Shown here: piece after piece, positions 2,682 through 57,369 of the stretch
How positions within the stretch are numbered: the first letter of the stretch is position 1
How the letters are laid out: each line of letters starts with the position of its first letter
Origin: an uncultured Bacteroidales bacterium
GTDB taxonomy: Bacteria; Bacteroidota; Bacteroidia; Bacteroidales; UBA3663
Direction: 5' to 3'
Assembly (NCBI GenBank): GCA_937899265.1
Contig: CALBPV010000002.1
Location: 1-61,970, forward strand
Length of the DNA stretch: 61,970 nt
The notes under the pieces: generated by a model
Told to the model about the DNA's origin: nothing
Database searches by the model: none
The model's input: only the letters and a program-made list of their open reading frames with translations
Translations under genes and position numbers: made by a program

Positions 2682-4625
2682 TTATTTGGCGGGAGTATCG
2701 AGGACCTCATATTTGGAGTGGTTGCTCTTGTACTCTGGCACAATCTCCTTCATCTTGCGGACGGTGTCCATATCATCGTAGTTGTGGGCGATGGCGATGA
2801 GGTCGCAAATCTCGCGGTCGGCCTCTGTATATTCGTACTCCCGCACCTCGGCAATCTTGATTTTCTCGTGGAAGGTGGGTTTGACGTGCTCCTGCTCGTT
2901 AAGCACTTCTTCGTAGAGTTTTTCTCCGTCGCGGAGACCTGTGAAAGTAATCTTGACGTTATCGGCTCCGGAAAGGAGTATCATGCGGCGGGCCAAATCG
3001 ACAATCTTGACGGGGTTGCCCATGTCGAAGACGAATATCTCTCCGCCCTTGCCCATGACTCCTGCCTCCAAGACGAGTTTGCAGGCCTCGGAAATCAACA
3101 TGAAGTAGCGGATGATGTCGGGATGGGTGACTGTGAGGGGGCCACCTTTTTTGAGCTGCTCCTTGAAGAGGGGGATAACCGAGCCGTTGGAGCCGAGCAC
3201 ATTGCCGAAACGGGTGGTGACGAACTGTGTCGAACCCTTGACCGAACCTTCTGTTATCGCTTTGTTGAGCGACTGGACGTAAATCTCACAGATGCGTTTG
3301 GAGCATCCCATGACGTTGGTGGGATTGACGGCCTTGTCGGTGGAAACCATCACGAACTTCTTGACCCCATACTTGACGCTGAGGTCGGCAATGACCTTGG
3401 TGCCATAGATGTTGTTGTAAACGGCCTCGGAGGGATTGTCCTCCATCATGGGGACATGTTTGTAGGCCGCTGCGTGGAAGACATAGTCGGGACGGAACGC
3501 TCCGAAGATGTGCTCCATGCGGTCGTGGTCGGTAATGCTGGTGACCACCGTCTCGGACGGAATGTAGGGGAAATCGCGTTTCATCATGAGACGGACATCA
3601 TGCTGGGGTGTCTCGGCCTGGTCTATCAACATCATGGCAGCCGGATGGAATTTGGCCACCTGACGCACCATCTCGGAGCCGATGGAGCCGGCAGAGCCGG
3701 TGATGAGAACCTTGGTGCCCTTGAGCATCTTCTCGACCTCTTCGAGGCTGATTTTGATTTCATCGCGGGGCAGTAGGTCTTCGATGCTGACCTCCTTGAG
3801 ACGGATTTGCGAGAAATCGTCGTCGGTGCCGGTCCATTCCCGGGCACTTTGAGCCATGTATATCTTCACCCCCTCGGAGATGAGCATGTCTTGGAACTCC
3901 TGTTCGGCACGGAAATTCTTCATGCGATAGGGCGAAACGATGAGACCCCGTATGTGGCGTTGGCGGATAACGGAGCGAAGGTCATCGTCCTTGGTATAAA
4001 CCGGCTCCTGCAAAAGCGTGCTGCTGGCGAGTTTGCTGTCATGGGAGATGAAACCGCGCAAGAGATATTTGGCGGGCTTCTGACTGCGGAGGTTCTTGGC
4101 GATGCCTACACCGCCTGTCATGGCACCGTAGATAAGCACCGGGACGGCATTGGAATCGCGGGTGGAGATTTCGAACAAAGTCTTCACCAAGACACGCACG
4201 CCTCCCATCAGGAGGGTCGCCAGGATGTAGAGGGTGACCAAAACGCGCGGGGGCAGCCAAGTGAACCAGGCAGACAGACCCGATTCCTCCCAGAAAGGAA
4301 GAAGGATGTAGTGGAGGGCCAATGTCACGAGGAGGGCTGTGAGATTGGCAAATGCCACATGCTGAAGATCCGCGAACGAAGAATAACGGACAATACCCGT
4401 GTAAGTGCGGAAAATCCGGAATGTCACGACACTGACAACAATGGCTATCAGCAGGCTGTGGGTCAACGAGTAGAAATTGACCGTCATCTGATATCCGCCG
4501 TTGAACAGATAATAGGCGAACAACCCTGAAAACCAAATAATCAGAACATCAAGCAAGAGAATGCACCAATAGGGCAGTGCACTCTTGCGGAAATACCAAT
4601 TAAAAAATTGTTTCAATTGCTTCAT
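2682..4625 (-). CDS. polysaccharide biosynthesis protein, CapD/WbpM-type membrane-anchored nucleotide-sugar 4,6-dehydratase (647 aa)
   Basis: Start MKQLKQFFNWYF (ATG 4623-4625 rc). Four N-terminal TM helices, then a Rossmann motif LITGSAGSIGSE and the SDR core YKHVPMME / STDKAVNPTNVMG. Confidence 0.85.
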   Translation of the reverse strand: MKQLKQFFNWYFRKSALPYWCILLLDVLIIWFSGLFAYYLFNGGYQMTVNFYSLTHSLLIAIVVSVVTFRIFRTYTGIVRYSSFADLQHVAFANLTALLVTLALHYILLPFWEESGLSAWFTWLPPRVLVTLYILATLLMGGVRVLVKTLFEISTRDSNAVPVLIYGAMTGGVGIAKNLRSQKPAKYLLRGFISHDSKLASSTLLQEPVYTKDDDLRSVIRQRHIRGLIVSPYRMKNFRAEQEFQDMLISEGVKIYMAQSAREWTGTDDDFSQIRLKEVSIEDLLPRDEIKISLEEVEKMLKGTKVLITGSAGSIGSEMVRQVAKFHPAAMMLIDQAETPQHDVRLMMKRDFPYIPSETVVTSITDHDRMEHIFGAFRPDYVFHAAAYKHVPMMEDNPSEAVYNNIYGTKVIADLSVKYGVKKFVMVSTDKAVNPTNVMGCSKRICEIYVQSLNKAITEGSVKGSTQFVTTRFGNVLGSNGSVIPLFKEQLKKGGPLTVTHPDIIRYFMLISEACKLVLEAGVMGKGGEIFVFDMGNPVKIVDLARRMILLSGADNVKITFTGLRDGEKLYEEVLNEQEHVKPTFHEKIKIAEVREYEYTEADREICDLIAIAHNYDDMDTVRKMKEIVPEYKSNHSKYEVLDTPAK

Positions 4626-4688
4626 ACTGAAAAATTTGTGAGATAAAAAATCTGCAGAAAACCTGCGGTTCATGAGAATGAGAGAAAC

Positions 4689-4829
4689 GGAGAATGGCAT
4701 TCTCCAAAATACAAAGAAGATAGAGCGAGAAAAGGGAGAATCTCTCCTCCGAAATACAAAGAAGATAGAGCGAAAGAGGGAGAATCTCTTCTCCGAAATA
4801 CTCCGAAATACAAAGAAGACGGCGCGAGG
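4689..4829 (-). repeat. three ~44-bp tandem units, each with a short hairpin, between upxY and the capD-like gene
   Basis: Unit reads GGAGAAT..ATTCTCC / GGAGAA-TCTC-TTCTCC plus CGAAATACAAAGAAGATAGAGCGA. Read directly from the sequence. Confidence 0.8.
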
Positions 4830-4834
4830 GGCAC

Positions 4835-5410
4835 TCAGACGGGCTGCACATCTTCTGCGAGGATCTCGCTGAAAACGTAGTTGGTCTGTCCCATTTCGAC
4901 GCGGATGACGATGTAGGCCGTGTGGCCTTTCTTTGTGAACCAGCCACGGAAGCCGGCCATGGGGCCCCTTATTATCTGCACTTCCTGGTTGGGATGGAAA
5001 TCCTCGACCGAGAAGATGACGGGAGTTGTGGACTCTTTCAAGACAAACTGCAGTTGCTGCATCTGGTCTTCCGGCACGAAAGCATAGGGGAGGATGCCGT
5101 TTGCGTTGGGTTTGGCGGCCCGGTTCTTTTGGAAACGCCAGACGGAAGAATAGGCGAGCAGGATGTCCATGAGCTTGCGTTCCTCGGTGCGGACAAAAAT
5201 CCGTCCGGAGAGGAGAACCCGTTCGACCTCGCGACGATTGCGGCTCTTGTAAATGTGGGTTTCCTTCCGGGATGCGACATAAACCTCGTAACCGGCTTTC
5301 TGCAAACAGGCACGAATGGAAAGCTCTCTGGTTGGCTTGCATTCGGCAATGTACCATTTGGCGTTGCGTACGGCAACGCCAGAGCCCTTATGCAGAACAT
5401 TGAGACCCAT
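4835..5410 (-). CDS. UpxY-family (NusG-like) transcription antiterminator
   Basis: NGN-like KWYIAECKPTRE...GRIFVRTEE and KOW-like IIRGPMAGFRGWF. Start placed at ATG 5408-5410 (MGLNV). ATG 5446 is an alternative. The track start at 5524 is TTG. Confidence 0.8.
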   Translation of the reverse strand: MGLNVLHKGSGVAVRNAKWYIAECKPTRELSIRACLQKAGYEVYVASRKETHIYKSRNRREVERVLLSGRIFVRTEERKLMDILLAYSSVWRFQKNRAAKPNANGILPYAFVPEDQMQQLQFVLKESTTPVIFSVEDFHPNQEVQIIRGPMAGFRGWFTKKGHTAYIVIRVEMGQTNYVFSEILAEDVQPV

Positions 5411-5964: not shown

Positions 5965-6657
5965 TCAATCGAGGAAATAATCGACGGTGGTAACGACGCG
6001 AATCTTCTTGATGTAGGGCGTGTTCTCGTTGAGTGCTTCGATGGAGAACTGTCCTTGGGAAGCGCGACGGATGGAGCCGAGGTCGCACTGCGCATCGGCT
6101 GCAAATTTTTGGGCCACGGCACGGGCATTGCGAGTAGCCTCTTCAATCATGGAGGGCTTAAGGTCGTTAAGTCCCGTGAATTCGTAGTTTACATTCCAGT
6201 CGTTGTTGCCGATATTGATTCCCTCACGCATGAGTTCCCCTTGCCGAGCCCGGAGTTCCAGAACCTTGTCGATATTGGAGGTGACGACGGTGACCGTGGC
6301 GGATACCTGATAGCGGAAAGGGGCGTTGCTGTTCCAAGAATCTGCTTGACGGTCCTCAAGACGTGGAGCGGCCACATAGATTTCGGACTCGGGAATGCCG
6401 TTTTTCTTGAGGAAAGAGAGGACGGAAGCCTGTTTGCGGTCGAGGTCACCCCAAACGGAAGATACATCGTTGCTGACGATGCTGAAAGTGAGAGCCCAGG
6501 TGACACGGTCGGCCTTCACTTCACGTTCGGAAAGTCCTTTTACCGTGACGAAACGGTCCTTGGACGCCATCTCGTGAATACCCTTGTAAACAGCGTTTCC
6601 TGCGAGGAAAATACCCAACGCGAGGACAAAAACATTGATAAAGCTTTTGAGATTCAT
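5965..6657 (-). CDS. SIMPL-domain (DUF541) periplasmic protein, 230 aa
   Basis: N-terminal signal/anchor. Sequence resembles SIMPL / 26-kDa periplasmic immunogenic protein family. Only 18 bp downstream of the TolC-like gene. Confidence 0.7.
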   Translation of the reverse strand: MNLKSFINVFVLALGIFLAGNAVYKGIHEMASKDRFVTVKGLSEREVKADRVTWALTFSIVSNDVSSVWGDLDRKQASVLSFLKKNGIPESEIYVAAPRLEDRQADSWNSNAPFRYQVSATVTVVTSNIDKVLELRARQGELMREGINIGNNDWNVNYEFTGLNDLKPSMIEEATRNARAVAQKFAADAQCDLGSIRRASQGQFSIEALNENTPYIKKIRVVTTVDYFLD

Positions 6658-6675
6658 AGAATTGAAGTTTAAAAA

Positions 6676-8106
6676 TTACATAAGGCCGGCGGCCTTGTCA
6701 TAGCGTATGCTCTGCAGCGACCAGTTGCATCGGGCTTGCACATTGCGGGCGTAAGCCTGTTGCCAAAGGGTCTGTGCTTCGAGGAGGTCGGACAGCGACT
6801 CGAGACCGACATCGTAGGAACGACGCGAAGAACGGAGATTCTCAGCGGCCTGTTCGAGTGCCGTTTCGGTCATCTGAGCCTCCAGCCGAGCCTCATCGAG
6901 ATTGTTCCAAGCCTGACGGAGTTCGAGATTCATCTGTTCGTCGAGGTCGAGCTGGGAGAGGCGGGTACGGTCTGCCTCGAGTCGGGCTGCTTTGACTTTG
7001 TGATAACCTTCACCGAAATGGAAGAGGGGAACCTTTACGTTGACCAGCACCCCGAAATCTGCGCCATCGAGGAACTTACTGTTGTTCAGTTCGACGCCAT
7101 TGACATAGCTATATCCGGCAGCAACTCCCACCTGGGGCAAGAAATCTGCACGGGCGAGTTTTACCTTCTGGACAGCGAGTTGCGTCTGATAATCCAAGAT
7201 TCGATACTCGGGACGGGAAGAGATGTCGCCCATGGAAACTTCCTCATGAAGCGAAAGACTTTGGGGGTCAGCCAGAATCTTATCGGTGAGCGGCAACCCC
7301 AATTTCTGGGCCAGATTCATCTGCGCCAATTTGACGGCATTGTCGGCACGGCGCACTTGGAGTTCGGCCTCATTTTTCTTGACCTGAACCTTCAAGACCT
7401 CGTTTTTGGAAACCATGCCGTGGCGTTTGGCCGACTCGACATCGCGCAGGAGGCGGGACAAGAGGGTGTCATAGTCCAAAGCCACCTTGTTCATCTCCTG
7501 GGCCTGGACCAAGAGAGTATAAGCCTCGGTCACATCGACCAAAGTCTGGGAGACAGAAAGCTGCTCGTTGAGTTGGGACATGCGGTAGCCCAACTGTCCC
7601 ATACGATAGCCTGCAGAGACTTTGCCGCCCATGTAGAGCGGCTGTTCGACCGTCAGTCCGACCTGAATGACGTTCCCGATTTTATAGTCGATGTCCGCGC
7701 CCGGGAAGTAGGCATACTCCTTGAACACAGGCGTGGAGCCGTTCATGACAGGATTTCCGGTTGCATCGGTCAGAACATTGGGCACCATTGTGCCTGTTGC
7801 AGCGCTATAGCTGAAGGTAGGCAAATAACCGCCCGCAATGGAGAAGGTGCCGTCGCAAGTGGCCCAAAAGTCGTTGGCCTGCACCTTGAAATTGGGGAAG
7901 AAATTGGCACGGAGAGACTTCATCGTGTGCTCATACTGCTGCGTCTGGAGACGTGCAGAGGCCAAAGACCGATTGTGCTCCAAGGCCAAGCTTCGCGCAG
8001 AATCGAGGGAGAGAGTCTGAGCCGAGGAGGCACCGGCGACCGACAAGAGCACGACGAGGAAAGACACCCGAAGTCGGGAGGGCAGAATATAAAAAGGACT
8101 TGTCAT
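6676..8106 (-). CDS. TolC-family outer-membrane efflux protein
   Basis: Signal peptide, two OEP-type repeats, coiled-coil-rich. ATGA overlap with the RND gene stop. Confidence 0.85.
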   Translation of the reverse strand: MTSPFYILPSRLRVSFLVVLLSVAGASSAQTLSLDSARSLALEHNRSLASARLQTQQYEHTMKSLRANFFPNFKVQANDFWATCDGTFSIAGGYLPTFSYSAATGTMVPNVLTDATGNPVMNGSTPVFKEYAYFPGADIDYKIGNVIQVGLTVEQPLYMGGKVSAGYRMGQLGYRMSQLNEQLSVSQTLVDVTEAYTLLVQAQEMNKVALDYDTLLSRLLRDVESAKRHGMVSKNEVLKVQVKKNEAELQVRRADNAVKLAQMNLAQKLGLPLTDKILADPQSLSLHEEVSMGDISSRPEYRILDYQTQLAVQKVKLARADFLPQVGVAAGYSYVNGVELNNSKFLDGADFGVLVNVKVPLFHFGEGYHKVKAARLEADRTRLSQLDLDEQMNLELRQAWNNLDEARLEAQMTETALEQAAENLRSSRRSYDVGLESLSDLLEAQTLWQQAYARNVQARCNWSLQSIRYDKAAGLM

Positions 8107-36033: not shown

Positions 36034-36062
36034 TCCGCCGAATGGATTAACGGACGGGACGA

Positions 36063-36104
36063 TTCATGGTTCACGGTTCACGGTTCATGGTTCATGGTTC
36101 ACGG
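36063..36104. repeat. six heptamer units TTCA(C/T)GG
   Basis: Read directly, 30 nt after the stop at 36031-36033. Confidence 0.9.
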
Positions 36105-36213
36105 TTCAAGAAAGAGAAAAATTCTCCAATTCTCAAATTCTTGATAAAAATCAGAATTAACGGCTATGAGAATGTCTATGCCGTCGAGATAGCTCCTGCC
36201 AAATAAAGGAAAA

Positions 36214-36869: not shown

Positions 36870-38789
36870 ATGTCAAAAACTTCGTTTATGAAGAAAAAAA
36901 TAGCCATCTTTTTGGCCTTTGTGCTGTTTTTTGAGCTTTGCAGACTCATCTTTATGTTCTGTTATTGGGACATTTACAGGGCCTACTCGCTGCTTGACTG
37001 GCTCAAGGCTCTTTCCCATGGCTTCGCCCACGACTTCACCGTCTCCGGCCTCATTATGCTGGTGCCCTTTGCGCTCGAAATCGTGCGCATCCTGCGTCCC
37101 GGAGCCTGGCATGACATCACGATGCGCCTCTGGTTCAGCATCATCATCCTGCCTGTTCTGACGTTTCTGGGGGTCGATTTCGTGCTCTACGGCTTTTGGG
37201 GGTTCCGTCTTGACACGACACCTCTCATCTACCTCTTCGACGACCCCGTCGAGGCGCTCAAACTGTCTCCGCCGGCAGCGCTCGTTGCCTCGCCCATTGC
37301 CTTGATTCTTTTTCTGTGGCTTATCCAGAAGCCTCTCCGCCGCCTTTTCCCCGCCGTCAGCCCCAACAAGCAGACGGCCACGGACCGTTCTTCGCGTTTC
37401 ACCATCGAACGCGCCACAGGCCATCGCCTCTCCCACATCCTCATGGCTCTTGCCATGATTCTGTTTTTCATTCTTCTCGAACGTTCTGTCACGCTCGGCA
37501 CGGCCTACTACACCACCGACATGCGCCTCAACCAGGCGGCCATCAACCCGGTCTATTCCGTTTGGTACTCGCTCAACCGTCCGTCCGACTTCCGTGCGCA
37601 ATATCGGTTCATGGGCGATGAGGACTGCCGTGCGGCTCTCGCCGAATTGGAATCCGTCCCGAGCCTTCAGGCTCCGTCCGACAGCCTGCCCGCCGGGCCT
37701 TCCGTTTCGCTCCTCTCCGTGAAGCGTCCCAACATTTTGCTCATTCTTCTCGAGTCGTTCTCCGGCATGGCGTGCCACGCCCTTTCGCCGGAGGCCAATC
37801 CTGCCATTATGCCGTGCATCGGCGAGCTCTATTCATCGAGCGTAGCTTTCACACGCTTCTACGCCAACTCTTTCCGTACCGACCGCGGCATGGCCTCCGT
37901 ACTTGCGGCCTATCCTTCCCAGCCCTGCTACACCGTTATGAACAATCCCGCCAAGGTAGGGTCGCTCCAGTACATCCCCCAGCGGCTCCGCGAATACGGC
38001 TGGACCACACAGTTCATCTACGGAGGCGATGCCGGGTTCACCAATCTCAAAGGCTTCCTCCATGCCGGTGCCATTGACGACATTGTCGAGAAGGACGACT
38101 TCCCCTCCGAACAGCTCACCATTCAAGCCGGAGCCCCCGACGAATTTCTTTTCGACCGCCTCTATAATATAATAGGTATGGAAACCGAGGCCCAGCGACG
38201 CGACAGCACGTTGGCCCCGTTCTTCAAAGCCACGCTCACCCTTTCGAGCCACGAACCCTTCGATACGCCCTTCGGCAGATTCGACGACCCCTACATCAAC
38301 TCTGTGGCTTACACCGATTCGTGTCTGGGTCTTTTCATCGACCGGCTGCGCGTGTCTCCCTCGTGGGACAATCTGCTGGTCATCGCCGTGGCCGACCACG
38401 GCTATGCCAACTATCCTCCCGGCGTGCAGAACCACGAGATGAAGCGACAGCTCATTCCCATGTTGTGGACCGGCGGCGCAATCGCCCGTCCGATCACCGT
38501 CCCTGCCCTCGCCTCCCAAGTCGATATCGCGGCTACGCTGCTGAGCCAGCTGGGGCTGCCCCACGACGATTTCAACTTCAGCCACGACATCTTTGATGCC
38601 GGTGCGCCCCGCTTCGTGGAATACACCTGGCCCGACGGCTTCGGATTCCTGACCGACAGCATCCGCTACATCCAGGACAACGAATACGACGGCCACGGCC
38701 TTGACGGCACCTTCGACCCCGAAGGCAAAGCCGAGCGTTGGGGCAAAGCCCTCCTCCAGGCCCTCTTCGACGACCTGGCGGAAAGATAA
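36870..38789 (+). CDS. LTA-synthase-family sulfatase-fold membrane protein (phosphoglycerol/phosphoethanolamine transferase-like)
   Basis: Five N-terminal TM helices plus a sulfatase domain (LILLESFSG..., VADHG). Confidence 0.8.
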   Translation: MSKTSFMKKKIAIFLAFVLFFELCRLIFMFCYWDIYRAYSLLDWLKALSHGFAHDFTVSGLIMLVPFALEIVRILRPGAWHDITMRLWFSIIILPVLTFLGVDFVLYGFWGFRLDTTPLIYLFDDPVEALKLSPPAALVASPIALILFLWLIQKPLRRLFPAVSPNKQTATDRSSRFTIERATGHRLSHILMALAMILFFILLERSVTLGTAYYTTDMRLNQAAINPVYSVWYSLNRPSDFRAQYRFMGDEDCRAALAELESVPSLQAPSDSLPAGPSVSLLSVKRPNILLILLESFSGMACHALSPEANPAIMPCIGELYSSSVAFTRFYANSFRTDRGMASVLAAYPSQPCYTVMNNPAKVGSLQYIPQRLREYGWTTQFIYGGDAGFTNLKGFLHAGAIDDIVEKDDFPSEQLTIQAGAPDEFLFDRLYNIIGMETEAQRRDSTLAPFFKATLTLSSHEPFDTPFGRFDDPYINSVAYTDSCLGLFIDRLRVSPSWDNLLVIAVADHGYANYPPGVQNHEMKRQLIPMLWTGGAIARPITVPALASQVDIAATLLSQLGLPHDDFNFSHDIFDAGAPRFVEYTWPDGFGFLTDSIRYIQDNEYDGHGLDGTFDPEGKAERWGKALLQALFDDLAER

Positions 38790-38790
38790 G

Positions 38791-39054
38791 CCGGAAACTC
38801 CGGAAACTCCGGAAGCTCCGGAAAATCCGGAAAACTCCGGAAAATCCGGGAAATCCGGGAAATCCGGGAAGTCCGGAAAGTCCGGAAAATCCGGAAACTC
38901 CGGAAAATCCGGAAAATCCGGGAAATCCGGAAAGTCCGGAAAATCCGGGAAACTCCGGAAAATCCGGGAAACTCCGGAAAATCCGGAAAATCCGGAACCT
39001 CCGGAAAATCCGGGAAATCCGGAACCTCCGGAAAATCCGGAAAATCCGGAACCT
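38791..39054 (+). repeat. 29-unit tandem array, consensus CCGG(A/G)AANT (26 nine-mers and 3 ten-mers)
   Basis: Counted unit by unit. TCCGGA is recreated at almost every junction. Confidence 0.95.
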
Positions 39055-39092
39055 CCGAAAAAGAAACCACCTAAAAAAACAACAGAAATAAA

Positions 39093-40505
39093 ATGAAGCG
39101 ATTTCTCTCCCTCCTCTGTCTGGCCGGACTCCTCGTTTCGGCCCATGCAAAAGTGTATGACGTGCGCGACTACGGAGCCAAAGGCGATGGCAAGACGCTC
39201 GACTCCCCCGCTCTCAACGCAGCCATCGATGCAGCTGTCGCCGACGGCGGCGGAACCGTCGAAGTGCCGGCAGGCACCTGGCTCTGCGGCAGCATCCACC
39301 TCAAGAGCAACATTGAGTTGCATTTGTCTCCCGGGGCCGTCATCAAAGCAGCCCCCCAAAAACTCAACGCCTACGATGAAAGCGAACCCTGGGAAGGACC
39401 CATGTACCAGGACGGCGGTCACACCTTCTTCCACAACAGCCTCATCTGGGCCGAAGGACAGAGCAACGTCTCCATCACGGGACACGGCATGATTGACGGT
39501 TCCAACCTCACCAAGAAGGACAAAGAGAAAGCCGGCATTGTGCTGGGCGGCAGCATCGGCATGGGCGACAAAGCCATTGCCCTCAAACTCTGCCGCAACA
39601 TCACCATCCGCGACATCACCATCTCGCGGGGCGGCCATTTTGCCATCATCATCACCGGGTGCGACATCGGCACGATAGACAATGTGACCATCGACACCAA
39701 CCGCGACGGCATCGACATCGACTGCTGCAAATACATCTCTGTCACCAACACGCGTGTCAATACGCCCCACGACGATGCCATCGTGCTCAAGAGTTCTTTT
39801 GCACTCAAGCGGAACGTTGCCTGCGAACACATCCTCATCGACAATTGTACAGTCACCGGCTACAAGGAAGGGTGCCTCCTCGACGGCTCCTACATCCCCG
39901 AGGAGGTCAACTGGGTGTGCGGTCGCATCAAACTGGGCACCGAGAGCAACGGCGGATATCAGGACATCGCCATCACCAACTGCTCCTGCCACTGGAGCTC
40001 CGGCTTGGCCTTCGAGGAAGTCGATGGAGGTCTGATGCGTAACATTGTGGTCGATAACATCACGATGAACCACGTGCACCATTATCCCATCTACATTACC
40101 ACCGGCTCCCGCTATCGCGGCCCGCAGGATTCCGTGGGCGTTTCGACGGGACAGAATATATATATTAATAATGTAGTGGCCAACGATGTCGATTCCCTTG
40201 CCGGCATCATCGTCACGGGCATGGAAGGCGCGCCCCTCCGCAACATCACCCTCTCCAACATCTATGTCAGCAGCCGGGGCGGCACGACCGAGGCACAGGC
40301 TCAGGAACTGGCCTCCACGCCCTATCGCGAACAGGGAACCAACTATCCCGAGCCCCGTTGGGCCGGTCCCACTCCTTCCTACGGAATGTTCGCCCGCCAC
40401 GTTGACGGCCTCCGTCTCGACAACGTCAACTTCGAGCTCCTACGTCCCGACGCCCGTCCCTGCATCATCACCGATGATGTACAGAACTACAAGAGAATAG
40501 AATAA
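39093..40505 (+). CDS. glycoside hydrolase family 28 (polygalacturonase-like)
   Basis: Signal peptide. YDVRDYGAKGDGKTLDS. Parallel beta-helix repeats with NTPHDDAIV / RIKLGTES. Confidence 0.85.
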   Translation: MKRFLSLLCLAGLLVSAHAKVYDVRDYGAKGDGKTLDSPALNAAIDAAVADGGGTVEVPAGTWLCGSIHLKSNIELHLSPGAVIKAAPQKLNAYDESEPWEGPMYQDGGHTFFHNSLIWAEGQSNVSITGHGMIDGSNLTKKDKEKAGIVLGGSIGMGDKAIALKLCRNITIRDITISRGGHFAIIITGCDIGTIDNVTIDTNRDGIDIDCCKYISVTNTRVNTPHDDAIVLKSSFALKRNVACEHILIDNCTVTGYKEGCLLDGSYIPEEVNWVCGRIKLGTESNGGYQDIAITNCSCHWSSGLAFEEVDGGLMRNIVVDNITMNHVHHYPIYITTGSRYRGPQDSVGVSTGQNIYINNVVANDVDSLAGIIVTGMEGAPLRNITLSNIYVSSRGGTTEAQAQELASTPYREQGTNYPEPRWAGPTPSYGMFARHVDGLRLDNVNFELLRPDARPCIITDDVQNYKRIE

Positions 40506-40541
40506 AAAATCCCGTCCGATGATTGTCGGACGGGATTTTTT
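40505..40541. terminator. bidirectional rho-independent terminator
   Basis: ATCCCGTCCGA-N6-TCGGACGGGAT flanked by A6 and T5. Confidence 0.8.
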
Positions 40542-40555
40542 ATGATGACGCGGGA

Positions 40556-46809: not shown

Positions 46810-46921
46810 CCGGAAATCCCGGAATCTCCGGAAGCCCCGGAATCTCCGGAAACCCCGGAAACCCCGGAATCTCCGGAATCTCCGGAAAATCCGGAAAATC
46901 CGGAAAATCCGGAAAATCCGG
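46810..46921 (+). repeat. 12 x 9-bp CCGGAANNN array plus CCGGCTCCC cap
   Basis: Counted. Same family as the array at 38791. Confidence 0.95.
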
Positions 46922-46955
46922 CTCCCCCCGAAAAAAAAACTCAACAACAAGAAAT

Positions 46956-48347
46956 ATGACAAAACAACACACGCTGAAGGAAAGCATTACCTTCACAGGC
47001 AAAGGCCTCCACACGGGCCTCGACATCACATTGACCCTCAACCCCGCGCCCGCCGACAACGGCTACACTTTCCAGCGCGTCGATCTCGAAGGGCAGCCCG
47101 TGCTTGAAGCCGTGGCCAGCAACGTCACCCAGACCCAGCGCGGAACGGTGATTGAGAAGGACGGTATTTCCGTTTCCACCATCGAACACCTCATGGCAGC
47201 GCTCTATGCTGCCGACATCGACAACTGCCTCATTCAGGTCAATGCCCCCGAAGTGCCCATCCTCGACGGAAGTTCCGTCCTCTACTGCGAAGCCATCGAG
47301 AAGGCCGGCATCGTCGAACTGGAGGCCAAGCGCGAGGTGTTCCGCATCACCAAGCCCTATCACGTCATCGACGAGGAAAAAGGCATCGACCTCGCCATCT
47401 ATCCCGACGACCATTTCTCCGTCACCGTCCTGGTCGATTTCCCGTCGCCCGTGCTCAACAACCAGTATGCCGTACTCAACAGCCTCGACGACTTCAAGAC
47501 GCAGGTGGCTGCCGCACGCACCTTTGTCTTCGTGCGAGAAATACAGCCGCTCTTGGCGGCCAACCTCATCAAGGGCGGAGACCTCGACAACGCCATCGTC
47601 ATCTACGACAGCAAGATACAGCAGGAAGAGATGGACAAACTGGCCGCTGTCATCCAGACCAAGGCCCCCTCGGCCGAAACGCTCGGCTACGTCCAGAACC
47701 GTCCCCTCACCTGGGACAACGAACCCGCGCGTCACAAACTGCTCGACCTCATCGGAGACCTTGCCCTCATCGGCAAGTACATCCAGGGGCGCGTTGTGGC
47801 CACCCGTCCCGGCCACGGCTTCAACAACAAGTTGGCACGCGCCGTCCGCAAGGACATGCGACGCACCGAGGTGCAGGTACCTGTCTATGACCCCAACAAA
47901 GAGCCGCTGCTCGACAACATCGGCATCAAGGCCATCCTCCCCCACCGCTATCCCATGCAGTTGGTCGATAAGATTATCGTGTGCGAACCCAACGACTATT
48001 GCGTGGGCGTCAAGAACGTCACGGCCAACGAGCCTTTCTTCCAGGGACACTTCCCCGAGGAACCCGTCATGCCCGGCGTCCTTCAGGTCGAGGCCATGGC
48101 CCAGTGCTCCGGCATCCTTGTGCTCAACTGCGTCGATGAACCCGAGAAGTACTCCACCTATTTCATGAGCATCAACAACGTCAAGTTCCGCCAGAAGGTG
48201 GTGCCCGGCGACACGCTCATCTTCCGCGTCTCCTTCCTCACACCCCTGCGGCGCGGCTGTGCCCAGATGAAGGGCTACGCTTTCGTGGGCGACAAGATTG
48301 TGAGCGAAGCCGAGTTCATGGCCCAAATCATCAAGAATAAAGAATAA
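46956..48347 (+). CDS. lpxC/fabZ: bifunctional UDP-3-O-acyl-GlcNAc deacetylase / 3-hydroxyacyl-ACP dehydratase
   Basis: LpxC N-terminal part (TIEHLMAAL) and FabZ hot-dog C-terminal part (FFQGHFP..PVMPGVL). Confidence 0.92.
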   Translation: MTKQHTLKESITFTGKGLHTGLDITLTLNPAPADNGYTFQRVDLEGQPVLEAVASNVTQTQRGTVIEKDGISVSTIEHLMAALYAADIDNCLIQVNAPEVPILDGSSVLYCEAIEKAGIVELEAKREVFRITKPYHVIDEEKGIDLAIYPDDHFSVTVLVDFPSPVLNNQYAVLNSLDDFKTQVAAARTFVFVREIQPLLAANLIKGGDLDNAIVIYDSKIQQEEMDKLAAVIQTKAPSAETLGYVQNRPLTWDNEPARHKLLDLIGDLALIGKYIQGRVVATRPGHGFNNKLARAVRKDMRRTEVQVPVYDPNKEPLLDNIGIKAILPHRYPMQLVDKIIVCEPNDYCVGVKNVTANEPFFQGHFPEEPVMPGVLQVEAMAQCSGILVLNCVDEPEKYSTYFMSINNVKFRQKVVPGDTLIFRVSFLTPLRRGCAQMKGYAFVGDKIVSEAEFMAQIIKNKE

Positions 48348-49174: not shown

Positions 49175-49290
49175 TCGGAACCACCGGAAAGTCCGGAAAG
49201 ACCGGAATCTCCGGAAGCTCCGGAAAGTCCGGAAAGTCCGGAATCTCCGGAAAATCCGGGCCCTCCGGGACCTCCGGAAACTCCGGCTCC
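49175..49290 (+). repeat. 12 x 9-bp (T/C)CGGRNNNN array plus CCGGCTCCC cap
   Basis: Counted. Paralogous to the array at 46810-46921. Confidence 0.95.
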
Positions 49291-49319
49291 CTCCCCTCCC
49301 ACGAAAAAAAACAACAGCT

Positions 49320-49865
49320 ATGGTTTATCATTTTGTAATACTTTCAGACGAAGTCGAAGATTTTCGCCGCGAGATTGACATCGATGCGACGGCAACCTTC
49401 CAAGACCTGCAGGACATTATCCTGAAGTCCTGCAACTACAAAAACGATCAGATGACCTCGTTCTTCATCTGCGGTGCCGACTGGAGCAAGGACTACGAGA
49501 TTACCATGATTGACATGAACGACAAGGACTCTGTGCTGCCCGTCACGAAGGTCATGGACCGCACCCACCTCGACGACACGTTCGGCAAGGAACCCGGAGC
49601 CAAGGTGATGTTCCTCTTCGACCCGATGTGCGAACGCTATCTCTACATGCAGCTCAAGTCGCTCGAAGACAAACGCCACATCCTGAAACCCGAAATAACC
49701 CTCTCCAAGGGCAAAGCCCCCAAGCAAATCGAAGACTTCGACAAACTCGTCGGAGGCATCGACGACGACATGTACGGCTCCGACGACTTCGACCCCGAGG
49801 AAATGGACCTCGACGGCTACCAAAGCCTCGACGACATCGAGGGCATCGAAAGCGGCGAATATTGA
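49320..49865 (+). CDS. acidic hypothetical protein, 181 aa
   Basis: Good coding appearance, no signal peptide, Asp/Glu-rich tail. Faint resemblance to pRiA4b-ORF3/MM3350-type domains (unverified). Confidence 0.5.
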   Translation: MVYHFVILSDEVEDFRREIDIDATATFQDLQDIILKSCNYKNDQMTSFFICGADWSKDYEITMIDMNDKDSVLPVTKVMDRTHLDDTFGKEPGAKVMFLFDPMCERYLYMQLKSLEDKRHILKPEITLSKGKAPKQIEDFDKLVGGIDDDMYGSDDFDPEEMDLDGYQSLDDIEGIESGEY

Positions 49866-49992
49866 GGCCGGCCCTCCCCCCCCCCTCGAAATCTCGAAAG
49901 GCCGGCCCTCCCCCCTCGTCATCTCGAAATCTCGTTATCTCGTCATCTCGAAACGCCGGCCCCCTCGAAATAACGCCCTCCCCCCTCGAAAT
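49866..49992. repeat. irregular C-tract / CTCGAAAT repeat block
   Basis: GGCCGGCCCTCCCC..CTCGAAAT modules with a C10 run at 49876-49885. Confidence 0.85.
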
Positions 49993-49993
49993 G

Positions 49994-50025
49994 AAAAAAG
50001 CCTCCCGCTCTCGGGAGGCTTTTTT
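49994..50025. terminator. bidirectional rho-independent terminator
   Basis: A6-GCCTCCCG-CTCT-CGGGAGGC-T6 between convergent genes. Confidence 0.8.
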
Positions 50026-51059
50026 CATTTCTTGAACAGGTGGCGTATCTTGGCGAACATCGCCTCGCACTTCGATTTCGAGGGCGTGAAGTCGCTCTTG
50101 TCGCGCAGCGCCTCGATGTGGCGGCGCTCCTCGTCGGTCAGCGTCTCGGGCACATAGACCAGGATGTTAATCAGCAGGTCGCCCGTGCCGTAGCCGTCGG
50201 ACTTGGGCAGTCCTTTGTTCTTGAGACGCAGGATGGTGCCGGGCTGTGTGCCGGCAGGCACATTGATGCGCACGCGTCCTGTCAGCGTCGGTATCTCGAC
50301 GGGCGAACCCAATGCCGCCTGCGGGAACGTCAGCGTGAGGTTATAGACCAGGTCGTCCTCGTCGCGTAGCAGTTCGGTGTCGTTCTTCACCTGGATGACC
50401 ACTATCAAGTCGCCGGCAGAACCGCCCGAATTGGAGGCGTGTCCCTTGCCTTGGAGCGAGAACTGCTGACCGTCGGTCACGCCCTTGGGGATGGGCAGAG
50501 CCACGACCTCTTCCTTTTCCACAACAGAAGAGCCTTCCTGCACATTGTGGCGGATTTTGACTTTCTTGGTCACACCGGTGGCCACCTCCTGCAACGTGAG
50601 CGGCACGGTGATGCGGATGTCCTGTCCTTTCATCGCGCGCGAACGTCCGCTGCGACTGCTGCGCCCGCCGCCCATGTGGACACGCTGTCCGTTGATATAA
50701 AACTCGCCGTCTCCGCCGAACATGTCGGCGAATCCGCCGAACCCTCTTCCCCCGCCGAAGATGTCTCCGAAACGGGAGAAGATGTCGTTGATATCCATAT
50801 TCTCGAAGCCTCCGCCATATTGCTGGCTGAAGCTCGAGGGATCCTGATAGCCGAACTGGTCATAGCGCGCCTTCTTCTGAGGGTCGCTCAACACCTCGTA
50901 AGCCTCTGCGGCTTCCTTGAATTTCTCTTCTGCCGCCTTATCGCCCGGATTCTTGTCCGGGTGATATTTCAAAGCAAGCTTACGATAGGCGCGTTTGATT
51001 TCGTCGGCACTGGCGCTCTTTGCCACGCCAAGCACTTCGTAATAATCTCTTTTTGCCAT
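50025..51059 (-). CDS. J-domain co-chaperone (DnaJ family) lacking the Cys-rich zinc-finger domain, 344 aa
   Basis: J domain [12 protein letters not shown]...HPDKN, G/F region and two C-terminal beta domains. Only one Cys in the whole protein. ATG at 51057-51059 (rc). Confidence 0.85.
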
Positions 51060-51082: not shown

Positions 51083-51244
51083 TCCGGAGAGCCCGGAGAG
51101 TCCGGAGATTCCGGGGCTTCCGGAGTTTCCGGAGGGTCCGGAGGGTCCGGGGCTTCCGGAGGGTCCGGAGGTTCCGGAGCTTCCGGAGTTTCCGGGGTTT
51201 CCGGAGAGTCCGGAGATTCCGGGGATTCCGGGGCTTCCGGAGGC
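51083..51244 (-). repeat. 18 x 9-bp TCCGGRNNN array (family member, minus orientation)
   Basis: Counted. Lies in the spacer between grpE and the J-protein gene. Confidence 0.95.
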
Positions 51245-51267
51245 TCCGCCCCGCTTTTTCGTCCATT

Positions 51268-51350
51268 GCGCGGCGCTTGGAGCGCCGCACATCTTCCCGC
51301 GCGGCGCTTGGAGCGCCGCACATCTTCCCGCGCGGCGCTACATCCTCACG
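51268..51350 (-). repeat. 2.6 x 31-bp tandem repeat, each unit with hairpin GCGGCGCT-TGG-AGCGCCGC
   Basis: Read directly. The last partial unit overlaps the grpE stop. Confidence 0.9.
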
Positions 51351-51924
51351 CCCCGACGACCACCTTGGCGAAACGGATGACCTTGTCGTCGAGTTTGTAG
51401 CCCTTGGTGGGACAGTCGATGATTTTGCCCTTCAGGTCGGGGGTCGGAGCCGGGAAGGTGGTAATCGCCTCGTGGAGGGTGTCGTCGAAGTCGTCGCCGG
51501 CGGCGGCGGGAATCTCCGTCACCTTGTTTTTGGCGAGGAAGCCCGTGAACTTCTGGTAGATGAGCTCCACGCCCTGCTTCACGCCTTCGAGGTCGTCACT
51601 CGTCCCGAGAGAGGCGAGGCCTCGCTCGAAGTCGTCGATGACGGGCAGCAGCTCCTTGAGCACGCCCTCACCGCCGTATTTGAGCAGAGCCTGCTTGTCT
51701 TTGGCGGTGTTCTTGCGGTAGTTGTCGAACTCCGCCATCAGTCGCAGGTAGGCATCCTTGTGGGCTGCCACCTCCTTTTCGAGGGCTGCGATGCGCTCCT
51801 CCGGCGATTCCGGCGATTCCTGAGTTTCCGGATTTTCCGGAGATTCCGGATTTTCCGGGGCTTCCGGAGTTTCCGGATTCACTTGATTTTCCTGAGTTTC
51901 GTTGATATTCTTTGTTTCTTCCAT
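51346..51924 (-). CDS. grpE: nucleotide exchange factor GrpE with repeat-encoded PE-rich N-terminus
   Basis: Coiled coil plus [14 protein letters not shown]. Start at ATG 51924 (MEETKN). Confidence 0.88.
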
Positions 51925-52065: not shown

Positions 52066-52893
52066 ATGCTTACCTTTCCCAACGCCAAGATTAACCTTGG
52101 ACTCTTCGTTACCCGTCGCCGCGAGGATGGATACCACATCCTCCAGACGCTGTTCTATCCCATCGACTGGTGCGACGCCCTCGAAATAGTGCCTGCCGGC
52201 GAGGCGGGCGAAGTGAAGTTCTTTGCCACCGGCATCGCCGTCGATGGCGATGCTGCCGACAACCTCTGTGTGCGGGCCTATCGCGCCCTGCAGCAACTGA
52301 GACCCGACCTGCCGGGCTGCGAGATACACCTCGAAAAACGCATCCCCTTCGGTGCCGGTCTGGGCGGCGGCTCCAGCGACGCTGCATTTACGCTGACGAT
52401 GCTCAACAAACTGTTCGCGCTCGGGCTCAATCAGGAACAGCTGGAAGCCGTTGCGGCCTCACTCGGCGCCGACTGCGCCTTCTTCTGTCGGCAGGGCGCC
52501 CAATACTGCGAGGGCATAGGCAGCGAGATGGAGCCCTATCCCCTCTCGCTCGCCGGCCGTTGGCTCGTCGTCGTGAAGCCCTCCTTCGGGGTGAGCACAC
52601 GCGAAGCCTACGCCCATGTGCGGCCGCAACAACCGGCCACCCCGCTCTACGAACTCCTGAAACAGCCCGTCGAGGCGTGGCGCGACACCGTCCGCAATGA
52701 CTTCGAAGCTTCCGTCTTCCCCGCCCATCCCGAACTCCAAACGGCCAAGGACACCCTCTACGCCCACGGTGCCCTCTACGCCTCGATGTCAGGCTCCGGC
52801 AGCGCCATGTTCGGCATCTTCGACCGCGAGGCCGACCCCGCCGGCTGGTTCCCCGCCGGCTGGGAAGCCCGCTGCATAAAGGACGGAGAGTAG
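52066..52893 (+). CDS. ispE: 4-diphosphocytidyl-2-C-methyl-D-erythritol kinase
   Basis: MLTFPNAKINLGL..., GHMP motif PFGAGLGGGSSDAA. Confidence 0.9.
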   Translation: MLTFPNAKINLGLFVTRRREDGYHILQTLFYPIDWCDALEIVPAGEAGEVKFFATGIAVDGDAADNLCVRAYRALQQLRPDLPGCEIHLEKRIPFGAGLGGGSSDAAFTLTMLNKLFALGLNQEQLEAVAASLGADCAFFCRQGAQYCEGIGSEMEPYPLSLAGRWLVVVKPSFGVSTREAYAHVRPQQPATPLYELLKQPVEAWRDTVRNDFEASVFPAHPELQTAKDTLYAHGALYASMSGSGSAMFGIFDREADPAGWFPAGWEARCIKDGE

Positions 52894-53172
52894 CCCGGAG
52901 AGTCCGGAAAGCCCGGAGTTTCCGGAGTTTCCGGGAGTTTCCGGGAGTTTCCGGAGTTTCCGGAGATTCCGGAGTTTCCGGAGTTTCCGGAGATTCCGGA
53001 GTTTCCGGGAGTTCCGGAGTTTCCGGAGATTCCGGAGTTTCCGGGACTTCCGGAGTTTCCGGGGGTTCCGGAGATTCCGGGAGTTCCGGGGGTTCCGGAG
53101 ATTCCGGGAGTTCCGGGGGTTCCGGAGTTTCCGGGAGTTCCGGGGTTTCCGGAGAGTCCGGAGGTTCCGGGA
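52894..53172 (-). repeat. ~30-unit 9/10-bp TCCGG(A/G)RNT array (family member, minus orientation)
   Basis: Fills almost the whole gap between the convergent ispE and ABC permease genes. Confidence 0.95.
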
Positions 53173-53184
53173 GAGGCTACTGCC

Positions 53185-55580: not shown

Positions 55581-55870
55581 AAAGTGCCAAAAGGTCGCCT
55601 ACATTTTGGGCAAGCCTTTGGCAGTTGCGGAAATCGCCATCGATTATCGATGGACCCAAAAGAAAGTGCCAAAAGGTCGCCTACATTTTGGGCAAGCCTT
55701 TGGCAATTGCTGAAATCGCCATCGATTATCGATGGAACCAAAAGAAAGTGCCAAAAGGTCGCCCAGAATCTGGGCAAGCTTTTGGCAATTGCGGAAATCG
55801 CCATCGATTATCGATGGACCCAAAAGAAACTGCCAAAGGCTTGCCCGGATTTTGGGCAAGCCTTTGGCAG
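55581..55870 (-). repeat. 3.5 x 82-bp tandem repeat, each unit carrying two palindromes (REP/REPIN-like)
   Basis: Units start at 55581, 55663, 55745 and 55827. P1 is TGCCAAAGG..GCC-N7/8-GGGCAAGCCTTTGGCA, a perfect 17-bp stem at 55830-55870. P2 is CCATCGAT-T-ATCGATGG. Confidence 0.9.
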
Positions 55871-56864: not shown

Positions 56865-56950
56865 AGGGGGGGATGTTATAGAGGGTGAATGCCCGTAGAA
56901 TGGGGCGGATGATGGAGGATGGAGGATGGAGAATAGAGGAGCGAGGATGG

Positions 56951-56985
56951 CAGATAATAATCTGCCCATTATAAACGGGGAGAGA
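56951..56985. repeat. hairpin module A: GGATGGCAGAT-AATA-ATCTGCC + ..AACGGGGAG
   Basis: Stem at 56957-56963 / 56968-56974. Direct repeat of module B. Confidence 0.8.
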
Positions 56986-57035
56986 CGAACCGCGACAACA
57001 ACCACGGGGCGAGGCACCACAGCGGGCACCACCGC

Positions 57036-57145
57036 GCGAGCCGCGACCGGGCGAGCGCCACGAGGGCGAGCCGCGACCGGGCGAGCGCCACGAGGGCGAG
57101 CCGTGACCGGGCGAGAGCCACGAGGGCGGGCCGCGACCAGGCGAG
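57036..57145. repeat. ~3.7 x 30-bp GC-rich tandem repeat (GCGAGCCGCGACCGGGCGAGCGCCACGAGG)
   Basis: Units start at 57036, 57066, 57096 and 57126. Confidence 0.9.
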
Positions 57146-57149
57146 ATGT

Positions 57150-57210
57150 CGCCCGTCTCCCCCGTTTGTAGGATGGGCAGATTAAAATCTGCCCGACATA
57201 GACGGGGGGC
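57150..57210. repeat. hairpin module B: extended imperfect palindrome around GGGCAGAT-TAAA-ATCTGCCC
   Basis: Stem at 57175-57182 / 57187-57194. The outer C5GT / ACG6 arms also pair. Confidence 0.8.
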
Positions 57211-57369
57211 GAGGCTCCACGAGACAAGAGCCGCGACCGGGCGAGAGCCACGAGACGCGGGCCACGGAGGGGCGAGGCTCCACGAGGGGCGAGAGCCACG
57301 AGGGCGAGCCGCAACGAGAGCCGCGCACACCAGAGGCGGAGCCGCCGCTGTCGCCACCTCCCCTGCTGC

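Follow-up and report, generated by a model that had tools for sequence, protein, structure and literature searches.

A fast-evolving nine-nucleotide tandem repeat in Bacteroidales spacers, placed in sense orientation ahead of gene starts

Repetitive extragenic palindromes (REP), known together with bacterial interspersed mosaic elements (BIME), are imperfect palindromes of 20-40 nt, often alternating, which are mobilised by RAYT transposases, and the polymorphic GC-rich repetitive sequences (PGRS) of Mycobacterium tuberculosis are 9-bp repeats, (CGGCGGCAA)n, that are essentially coding (PE_PGRS proteins). Intervening sequences (IVS) of 23S rRNA can carry an S23p/four-helix-bundle open reading frame (ORF; PF05635) between sequences capable of pairing as a long stem. 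Mycobacterial interspersed repetitive units with variable numbers of tandem repeats (MIRU-VNTR) are operon-spacer minisatellites whose insertion is tolerated because downstream expression is preserved (PMC12548453), and BrickBuilt of Porphyromonas gingivalis is built of 23-nt units, with leader and tail subunits that carry inverted-repeat ends, and shows promoter activity (PMC4596501). The present analysis concerns a 61,970-nt stretch of contig CALBPV010000002.1 (GCA_937899265.1) from an uncultured Bacteroidales bacterium of the GTDB lineage UBA3663, hereafter the window. The fused lpxC-fabZ gene and the A-rich leaders without Shine-Dalgarno sequences bear out the assignment to Bacteroidales. 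The window carries six arrays of a nine-nucleotide unit, CCGGAANNY, five of them intergenic (A1 to A4 and A6) and one inside the coding sequence of grpE (Table 1), which were compared with related genomes by computation. At a probability of roughly 0.55, the arrays are best read as a slippage-driven minisatellite with a palindromic core, carried in transcribed spacers, that is tolerated only where it reads in the sense direction and stays just clear of the start region, with an effect on the mRNA that does not go beyond modulation.

Array A1 lies between a gene for a 639-aa protein of Sulfatase/LTA-synthase type (36870-38789) and a GH28-type gene whose product has a pectate-lyase fold and a signal peptide; it begins 1 base past the TAA of the former (38787-38789) and ends 38 nt before the ATG of the latter (39093). 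Tandem Repeats Finder (TRF) reported a period of 9 with 29.9 copies and a score of 363 over 38791-39062, and anchoring on CCGG gave 29 consecutive units at spacings of 9 nt (25 times) or 10 nt (three times), that is, 26 nine-mers and three ten-mers of head-to-tail CCGG(A/G)AANT. Both the position of A1 and its unit count and flanking distances agree with the original prediction, which had been made from the letters of the window and a list of its ORFs, and the five sister arrays that it had named were found in place by TRF and direct counting (from 51800 and 52892, in our count, for the coding copy and A6). A degenerate three-unit pattern matched 167 times in the window and not once in 100 dinucleotide shuffles, bearing out the idea of a non-chance repeat family at six loci. 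None of the five intergenic arrays holds a stop codon in any of the six frames, as had been foreseen for A1, and this openness accounts for the ORFs of PE, SGK and RKL type and for an antisense ORF of 855 aa. Gene callers run ORFs through such arrays elsewhere too: besides the antisense ORF of the window (37833-40400, minus strand), homologues of purH were called at 418-500 aa instead of 393 aa (P0121, P0155, P0156, P0175, P0215 and others), and at L208 (comparison contigs and loci are denoted by L numbers) the call of a four-helix-bundle gene was stretched up to the purH start (2225-2998).

The arrays are hypervariable. Contigs of the same species from the bioreactor metagenome project PRJEB12797 were available for comparison, two of them about 98% identical to the window over 14 kb (L001 and L002) and a third 99.7% identical (L003). 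Arrays were present at all six sites, and the number or order of units differed in every one of them, the counts for the window against L001/L002 being 29 against about 20; 13 against 14 and 11; 12 against 15; 18 against 14; 8 against 9; and 31 against at least 37. The pattern of these differences is that of whole units, one to three at a time, having been duplicated or lost, as where A2 of L001 equals that of L002 plus a 27-bp block, and the (Pro-Glu-X)n tract of GrpE likewise varies by whole units among strains (193 against 192 aa). A2 was identical in the window and in the independent assembly L003. The suggestion that the spacers are hypermutable was thereby strengthened, all six arrays differing between contigs that are about 98% identical.

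Turnover extends to the sister species. On the syntenic contig L125, where LpxC-FabZ is 95% identical at the amino acid level and nucleotide identity is 77-89% (about 84%), the arrays are short, decayed or absent: a 5-6-unit array remains between lpxD and lpxC, the grpE-dnaJ spacer holds 4-5 units of TCGGAGTAC / TCAGAATAA, a transition-decayed form of CCGGAATAC in the same orientation, the PEx tract of GrpE is degenerate, and the array after lpxA is absent, its place being taken by a 12-nt spacer. No CCGG arrays were found in two more distant relatives (L126 and L127, with 83% and 79% LpxC-FabZ identity), some spacers of which carry other short repeats. This comparison of orthologous spacers, which the original prediction had proposed, suggests that the arrays are ancestral at some loci, have been much expanded in the lineage of the window, and are decaying or absent in its neighbours. 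Arrays of an 8-mer, ATTTCGAN, occur at three spacers of L125 and may be TCGA-core relatives of the CCGG family.

The anatomy of the unit is uneven. CCGG is intact in 112 of 112 consecutive window units, degenerate units being confined to array edges. Among 93 units, 84 have A at position 5, 83 have A at position 6 and 92 have a pyrimidine at position 9; positions 7 and 8 are nearly free, with an entropy of 1.5-1.7 bits. Decay variants of the core in relatives (CCAG, CTGG and TCGG) are all transitions. One array of a relative (L034, 700-820) consists of four TCCGGA-core units followed by eight TCTAGA-core units, the 3-nt spacer differing in nearly every unit and the palindromic core being swapped as a block. 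Such invariance of a self-complementary core beside changing spacers would be expected if pairing, in slipped DNA or in RNA, governs the persistence of units. The sense strand of the arrays is U-poor (11-13% T), with C well above G in four of five arrays, and many units outside A1 lack an A-tract (e.g. CCGGACCCT and CCGGAAGCC).

The placement of the arrays follows the downstream gene. Orientation was scored without gene calling, by searching both strands for an ATG-led ORF of at least 100 aa with its start 5-90 nt past the array. Across independent Bacteroidota loci, 16 arrays were sense (CCGGAA strand) to the next ORF and one was antisense (p = 2.7e-4), and the last CCGG lay 18-59 nt (median 36) from the ATG. 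Orientation with respect to transcription is therefore not random. The original prediction had held that each array is oriented like the gene that precedes it; the dependence on transcription stands, the general rule being that arrays are sense to the following gene and end about 20-60 nt before its ATG. They occupy 5' leaders and intercistronic spacers, and are not tied to 3' ends specifically. In their own orientation, arrays upstream of genes lead into a few C-rich bases, then an A-rich leader, then the ATG, a C-run being found after the array in 26 of 55 cases and before it in 7 of 55. Thus A2 is followed by a C-run, an A-run leader and the start of lpxC-fabZ at 46956 (lpxC and fabZ are fused in one gene in the window), and A3, which begins 4 nt past the lpxA stop, by a C-rich and then an A-rich leader before the ATG, at 49320, of a PRiA4_ORF3-like gene (181 aa). 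A6 fills a convergent spacer, its sense strand being that of the ABC-2 permease gene.

Window arrays begin 1-12 nt past the upstream stop, which leaves no room for a promoter, and they should therefore be co-transcribed with their neighbours. At two loci of relatives (L064 and L136) a -7 box, TAtcTTTG, the promoter consensus of Bacteroidota, stands just 5' of the array, placing the array within the 5' untranslated region. Replication strand was considered as a cause of the orientation and is compatible with the window taken alone (+ + + - - -), but the 16:1 ratio over unrelated loci argues for transcription. Masking of the start by an inverted, U-rich array was also considered and found no support: the predicted unpaired probability from -20 to +6 was 0.78 for the native leader, 0.76 with the array inverted, 0.77 with it deleted and 0.76 with it shuffled, none of which differs significantly from the native value.

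Folding predictions point to extensive self-pairing of the array RNA. A1 with its flanks has a predicted fold of -146.7 kcal/mol (z = -6.9), and the predicted folds of A2 and A4 have z values of -3.9 and -6.0. In the minimum free energy (MFE) shape the entire array doubles back into a ladder of 6-bp UCCGGA helices with 3x3 loops between them, within an ensemble that is highly degenerate (MFE frequency 0.0009, centroid almost unpaired), and the A-rich leader and the AUG are single-stranded, so that self-folding of the array is predicted to spare the start site. It had been proposed that adjacent units pair as a row of mini-hairpins. Pairing through the self-complementary core is retained here, in the form of a degenerate ladder spanning the array and not of a string of mini-hairpins: unit positions 5 and 9, which would close the mini-hairpin, show no covariation and are unconstrained as a pair (A..C is as frequent as A..T outside the window), so that only the CCGG core matters for pairing. 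Intrinsic terminators likewise found no support as an explanation: the scan flagged 22 against a shuffle expectation of 19.1, and of the arrays it touched only the edges, on the antisense strand; genuine terminators lie elsewhere in the window (e.g. 40502-40543).

Under the minisatellite reading, in which the arrays are lineage-specific and hypermutable, units would be gained and lost by slipped-strand mispairing or unequal recombination, and the self-complementary core would stabilise slipped hairpins, so that units with an intact core would be the ones copied, a copying bias that would act as a molecular drive and mimic conservation. Arrays may then persist only at sites, and in the orientation, where they are harmless: the unit cannot create a stop codon in any frame, and the array RNA would pair with itself and not with the type of start region used by Bacteroidota, which is A-rich and lacks a Shine-Dalgarno sequence. 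Any function would be modulatory and not locus-specific, with unit number as a tunable knob, candidate roles being, for a self-folding spacer, to influence how mRNA is processed or how stable it is, or to insulate adjoining cistrons from one another.

The family reaches well beyond the window. A strict pattern of four units plus CCGGAA, used to scan GTDB species representatives, matched at least 118 stretches; this distribution is a lower bound and, the unit being fixed by the pattern, is silent on other repeat units. Among the matches listed, about one third came from metagenome-assembled genomes (MAGs) of Prevotella, Prevotellaceae, Bacteroidaceae or Bacteroidales and from the isolate Prevotella sp. 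tc2-28 (L064), about one quarter from Planctomycetota, mostly Phycisphaerae, with units of the CCGGAACCC type, and most of the others from actinomycetes, where the repeat is apparently coding. The array-bearing relatives include many from rumen and gut. Two settings recur in Bacteroidota, where gene calls outside the window are ORF-based: intergenic arrays in the order stop or hairpin, array, C-run, A-rich leader and ATG, and in-frame (Pro-Glu-X)n tracts inside ORFs. At several of these loci two to four arrays are crowded into 8 kb, L064 having three. By TRF, other arrays of 7-, 8- and 9-mers are present at the same Bacteroidales loci and are common in spacers. A1 had been presented as a founding example, a description that fails in the wider sense, the same unit being widespread in Prevotellaceae and Bacteroidales MAGs and present in an isolate.

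The array found no match by blastn in the plasmid collection, and viral contigs gave only two pattern matches, both apparently coding. Rfam returned no match at gathering thresholds over the whole window, and permissive thresholds gave only matches far below them, the best on the array being tsr1 (40 bits against 235); RsmY scored 18.9 bits against a gathering score of 57. The earlier judgement that the repeat is neither CRISPR nor REP/BIME, BOX or ERIC (enterobacterial repetitive intergenic consensus) holds, and extends to every Rfam gathering score. Searches of the literature on this unit and on intergenic tandem repeats of Bacteroidetes found no account of a CCGGAANNY family; variable intergenic tandem repeats and indels have been described in general terms from long-read Planctomycetota MAGs (PMC9426551). 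The CCGGAANNY arrays thus apparently form an undescribed family of bacterial intergenic minisatellite.

BrickBuilt is the closest analogue within the order. Like it, the arrays form an intergenic, spacer-free minisatellite of Bacteroidales that occupies many loci in a genome, varies between strains and is flanked asymmetrically (here by the C-run tail); no conserved head or inverted-repeat ends were seen in them, and homology between loci stops at the ORF. MIRU-VNTR and REP/BIME are the closest functional analogues. MIRU-VNTR are likewise intergenic within operons, co-oriented with transcription, adjacent to start codons and variable in copy number by strain, but their units are 40-100 bp long and contain a small ORF that is coupled to the next start and overlaps the flanking stop and start codons with its ends, whereas the present unit has 9 nt and a palindromic core, bears no frame relation to flanking genes and has also invaded ORFs as Pro-Glu-X. 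With REP/BIME the arrays share an extragenic, probably transcribed and self-complementary nature within operons, and they may be joined in a mosaic to short GC-rich hairpins, some of them in tandem (51268-51339 in the window; L210); they differ in being head-to-tail 9-mers of one orientation with a palindromic core of 4-6 nt, only the 51268-51339 repeat being REP-like. Hairpin modules similar to the latter also precede arrays in Prevotella loci (CCCTCCCC-n4-GGGGAGGG; GGGGCC-n4-GGCCCC). The simple sequence repeats of contingency loci resemble the arrays in the slippage-type gain and loss of units near gene starts and inside ORFs; here, however, the 9-nt unit keeps the frame, the arrays lie in the leader and not between promoter hexamers, and the genes are housekeeping ones (lpxC, dnaJ). 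An on/off switch is not expected from a repeat that keeps the frame and lies in the leader. PGRS are also 9-bp, GC-containing tandem DNA repeats that give repetitive peptides when in an ORF, whereas the present arrays are mostly non-coding. CRISPR differ in having repeats of 21-48 nt with unique spacers, against units of 9-10 nt without spacers.

An association with one gene family emerged in Prevotellaceae. Four of the 16 genes downstream of arrays (at L028, L035, L041 and L064, the last at 5994-6683) are orthologous four-helix-bundle (FHB) genes, 60-72% identical and in non-syntenic contexts; they encode proteins of 230-274 aa with matches to PF05635 (23S_rRNA_IVP)/TIGR02436, to the '4helix_suffix' family TIGR04258 and to a coiled coil. 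Unbiased retrieval of homologues yielded 80 FHB loci from metagenomes (L128-L207). An array was present at the FHB stop codon in 44 of 75 loci, the stop often falling within the first units (offsets -7, -16, -25 and -34), and, according to the span used for counting, 13-19 of 74 loci had one upstream of the FHB ATG; the other 228 kb of these loci held four arrays only, which corresponds to an approximately 100-fold enrichment beside the FHB gene. The neighbours of the gene vary widely, 104 ORFs falling into 78 clusters, and no conserved flanks were found, homology between loci being confined to the ORF. Upstream and downstream arrays occur independently (12 of 19 loci with an upstream array had both, against a baseline of 59%), and a model in which a cassette splits a pre-existing array is not favoured on this ground. 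The purH spacer (L208-L220, about 4180-5300) offers an occupied/empty-site polymorphism among strains with identical or near-identical PurH: three states were seen, namely a GC hairpin module (once or four times) together with a 9-mer array of 6-9 units, an FHB gene of 121 aa with inverted 7-mer arrays (GAATTGA...TCAATTC) on either side, and almost nothing. No FHB homologue was found in the window or in L001 and L125-L127.

These observations raise an explanation, which we regard as unlikely, in which the arrays are stem-forming cis parts of an IVS-like element tied to FHB genes. Through the palindromic core, arrays would pair with themselves and with one another into long RNA stems that would be cut, for instance by RNase III, or bound, releasing or insulating the cistron enclosed by them or next to them, and the solitary arrays of the window would be ORF-less stems, either cassette remnants or landing pads. 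It would accommodate the enrichment at both ends of FHB genes, the recurrence of '4helix_suffix' orthologues in non-syntenic contexts among diverse neighbours, the purH polymorphism and the long self-paired ladders predicted for the arrays, and the likeness to IVS lies in the fact that Prevotellaceae genes of the same protein family are flanked by 9-mer or inverted 7-mer arrays. Yet the present arrays lie in mRNA spacers and not in rRNA, those of the window have no FHB ORF nearby, an upstream array does not raise the odds of a downstream one, 6-bp helices separated by 3x3 loops make poor classical RNase III substrates, and the association is limited to Prevotellaceae-type sequences. Quite unlikely, in our estimate, is a wider proposal that 9-mer arrays and inverted 7-mer arrays are the RNA-stem part of unrecognised Bacteroidales mosaic elements functionally tied to FHB (IVS/Avd family) proteins; the arrays would be processed, or bound by these proteins, and would thereby separate inserted cassettes and neighbouring cistrons as RNA, the solitary arrays of the window being active cis sites or relics. 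CsrB and RsmY are GGA-repeat sponges, and the same logic, acting in cis, underlies the improbable view that (CCGGAAACU)n arrays are a multivalent platform, as leader RNA or as duplex DNA, for a protein that reads YCCGGAA once every 9 nt and would act as a regulator of translation, of the fate of the mRNA or of nucleoid structure nearby. The retention of CCGG, A5, A6 and Y9, with positions 7-8 free, in coding and non-coding copies alike, the strict 9-nt period, the fixed orientation and position before starts and a weak, sub-threshold likeness to RsmY only would fit such a platform; gain and loss at housekeeping loci between sister species, with no shared downstream function, make a regulon unlikely, the apparent conservation in other genomes is largely imposed by the search pattern, and replacement of the CCGG block by CTAG is tolerated (L034).

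The remaining explanations can be given very little weight. The original prediction had pointed to intrinsically bent DNA, the A-tracts being phased near the helical repeat, and a DNA-level element of this kind, or one structuring the nucleoid or a promoter, could draw on the very regular recurrence of A-tracts at 9.1 bp, where the phasing resultant is 0.92. At 10.5 bp, however, the resultant is 0.17, and it stays at 0.11-0.17 over 10-11 bp, about the random level for 24 tracts, so that the A-tract vectors cancel and planar curvature is not supported, the bends being out of phase with the helix; A-tracts are missing from many units of other arrays, a transcription-related orientation bias is not expected of a symmetric DNA-shape element, and at loci with a visible -7 box the array stands 3' of the promoter. 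We therefore regard a DNA-level element as very improbable. Translation of the spacers, as Pro-Glu-X C-terminal extensions arising by readthrough or frameshift or as small coupling ORFs ending on the next start, is hard to credit. Every frame is open, the window is suggestive (in A2, A3 and A4, three of five arrays, the upstream stop and the PE frame are in register, and in A1 and A2 the PE-frame ORF closes on a TGA that overlaps the ATG, as ATGA), genuine coding copies exist in GrpE and elsewhere, and MIRU provide a precedent (PMC12548453). Over the larger sample of 24-29 arrays, by contrast, the frames are uniform (9:9:6 relative to the upstream stop and 8:9:12 relative to the downstream ATG), eight- and ten-mers shift the frame inside intergenic arrays, and the heads of A1, A2 and A3 have no start codon; the intergenic arrays are under no translational constraint, and a readthrough or coupling ORF was accordingly rejected. 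Nor is there much to be said for an artefact of short-read metagenome assembly affecting the arrays or their lengths, which is most improbable even though all assemblies of the species are short-read and unit numbers vary between assemblies of the same project: the same six sites recur in independent assemblies, with A2 identical in two, the order of units is complex enough to anchor reads, the coding copy preserves the GrpE frame, and the family is found in the isolate genome of Prevotella sp. tc2-28 and, as arrays of the same unit, on multi-megabase contigs whose names suggest long-read assembly (L031, L105 and L080).

Several points nevertheless weigh against the reading of the arrays as a tolerated, slippage-driven minisatellite. 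The occurrence of the same unit at many loci and in several Bacteroidales families is unexplained by pure in-situ slippage, and the conserved AA (positions 5-6) and Y (position 9), which lie outside the CCGG palindrome, hint at sequence-specific recognition. The enrichment beside FHB genes in Prevotellaceae is not predicted by a neutral minisatellite. As to the cause of the orientation bias, predicted accessibility of the start is the same when the array is inverted, and inverted arrays are not canonical terminators. Finally, the exact unit numbers of the window species rest on short-read assemblies.

Table 1. Repeat arrays and associated features of the window.
Feature	Position	Strand	Description
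A1	38791..39054	+	29 units; between the stop of the Sulfatase-family gene and the GH28 gene
A1 leader CCGAAAAAGAAACCACCTAAAAAAACAACAGAAATAAA	39055..39092	+	rich in A, poor in U and G; single-stranded in the predicted RNA fold
A2	46810..46926	+	13 units; lpxD > lpxC-fabZ spacer, in the lpxD / lpxC-fabZ / lpxA cluster
A3	49175..49294	+	1 degenerate unit and 12 units (12-13 counted; regular from 49184)
A4	51083..51248	-	18 units, grpE > dnaJ; tail 24 nt from the dnaJ ATG (51059)
GC hairpin GCGGCGCT-nnn-AGCGCCGC	51268..51339	-	31-bp perfect tandem repeat, 2.3 copies; between the grpE stop and A4; REP-like
Coding copy	51800..51900	-	in-frame (Pro-Glu-X)n tract at the GrpE N-terminus
A6	52892..53175	-	31 units (2 ten-mers); fills the convergent spacer between the GHMP-kinase gene (+) and the ABC-2 permease gene (-)

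Other repeats were noticed in the window and in related genomes. Between convergent genes at 49868-50026, four GGCCGGCCC-T-C(6-10)-TCGAAAT modules are interleaved with 8-mer ATCTCGAA repeats and followed by a clean bidirectional terminator hairpin; with a TCGA core, these repeats may be related to the CCGG family. Upstream of an ABC-transporter operon (55581-55869) stands an 82-bp repeat in 3.5 copies (91% match) with internal palindromes (ATCGATTATCGAT; GCCAAAAGG...CCTTTGGC), and within 56907-57318 GC-rich repeats recur at periods of 7 bp and 15-32 bp (GGAGGAT; GGGCGAG..CCACGAG). A tandem repeat of 44-45 bp is present in 2.7 copies at 4680-4811 (87-92% match), and the intergenic stretch 36059-36141 carries seven copies of a heptamer (ACGGTTC/ATGGTTC) followed by 2.9 copies of AAATTCTC. 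Heptamer arrays are common in the Bacteroidales loci (AGTGAAG in 16 copies, GAATTGA in 12, TAAACTG in 10), some as inverted pairs. A second 9-mer family, GTCCGACAA, is common to two Prevotellaceae MAGs (L051, 3290-3400; L021, 4888-4967), the array of L051 being a tandemly amplified 5' arm of a terminator hairpin (…GTCCGACAGGTCAGACTTGTCGGAC followed by T7).

Bacteroidales, which dominate the gut and the rumen, do not rely on Shine-Dalgarno pairing to initiate translation. A repeat that is widespread, strand-specific and fast-evolving, positioned 20-60 nt before gene starts and within housekeeping operons (lpxD-lpxC, grpE-dnaJ), is a new feature of the genome architecture of this order. The arrays could be used as a variable-number tandem repeat marker for strain typing, and they provide a natural series in which the effects of leader length and structure on Shine-Dalgarno-independent translation may be followed. 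For annotation, the open frames that run through them are a cause of spurious long ORFs and N-terminal extensions. The approximately 100-fold association with FHB genes offers a handle both on the repeats and on a gene family of unknown function.

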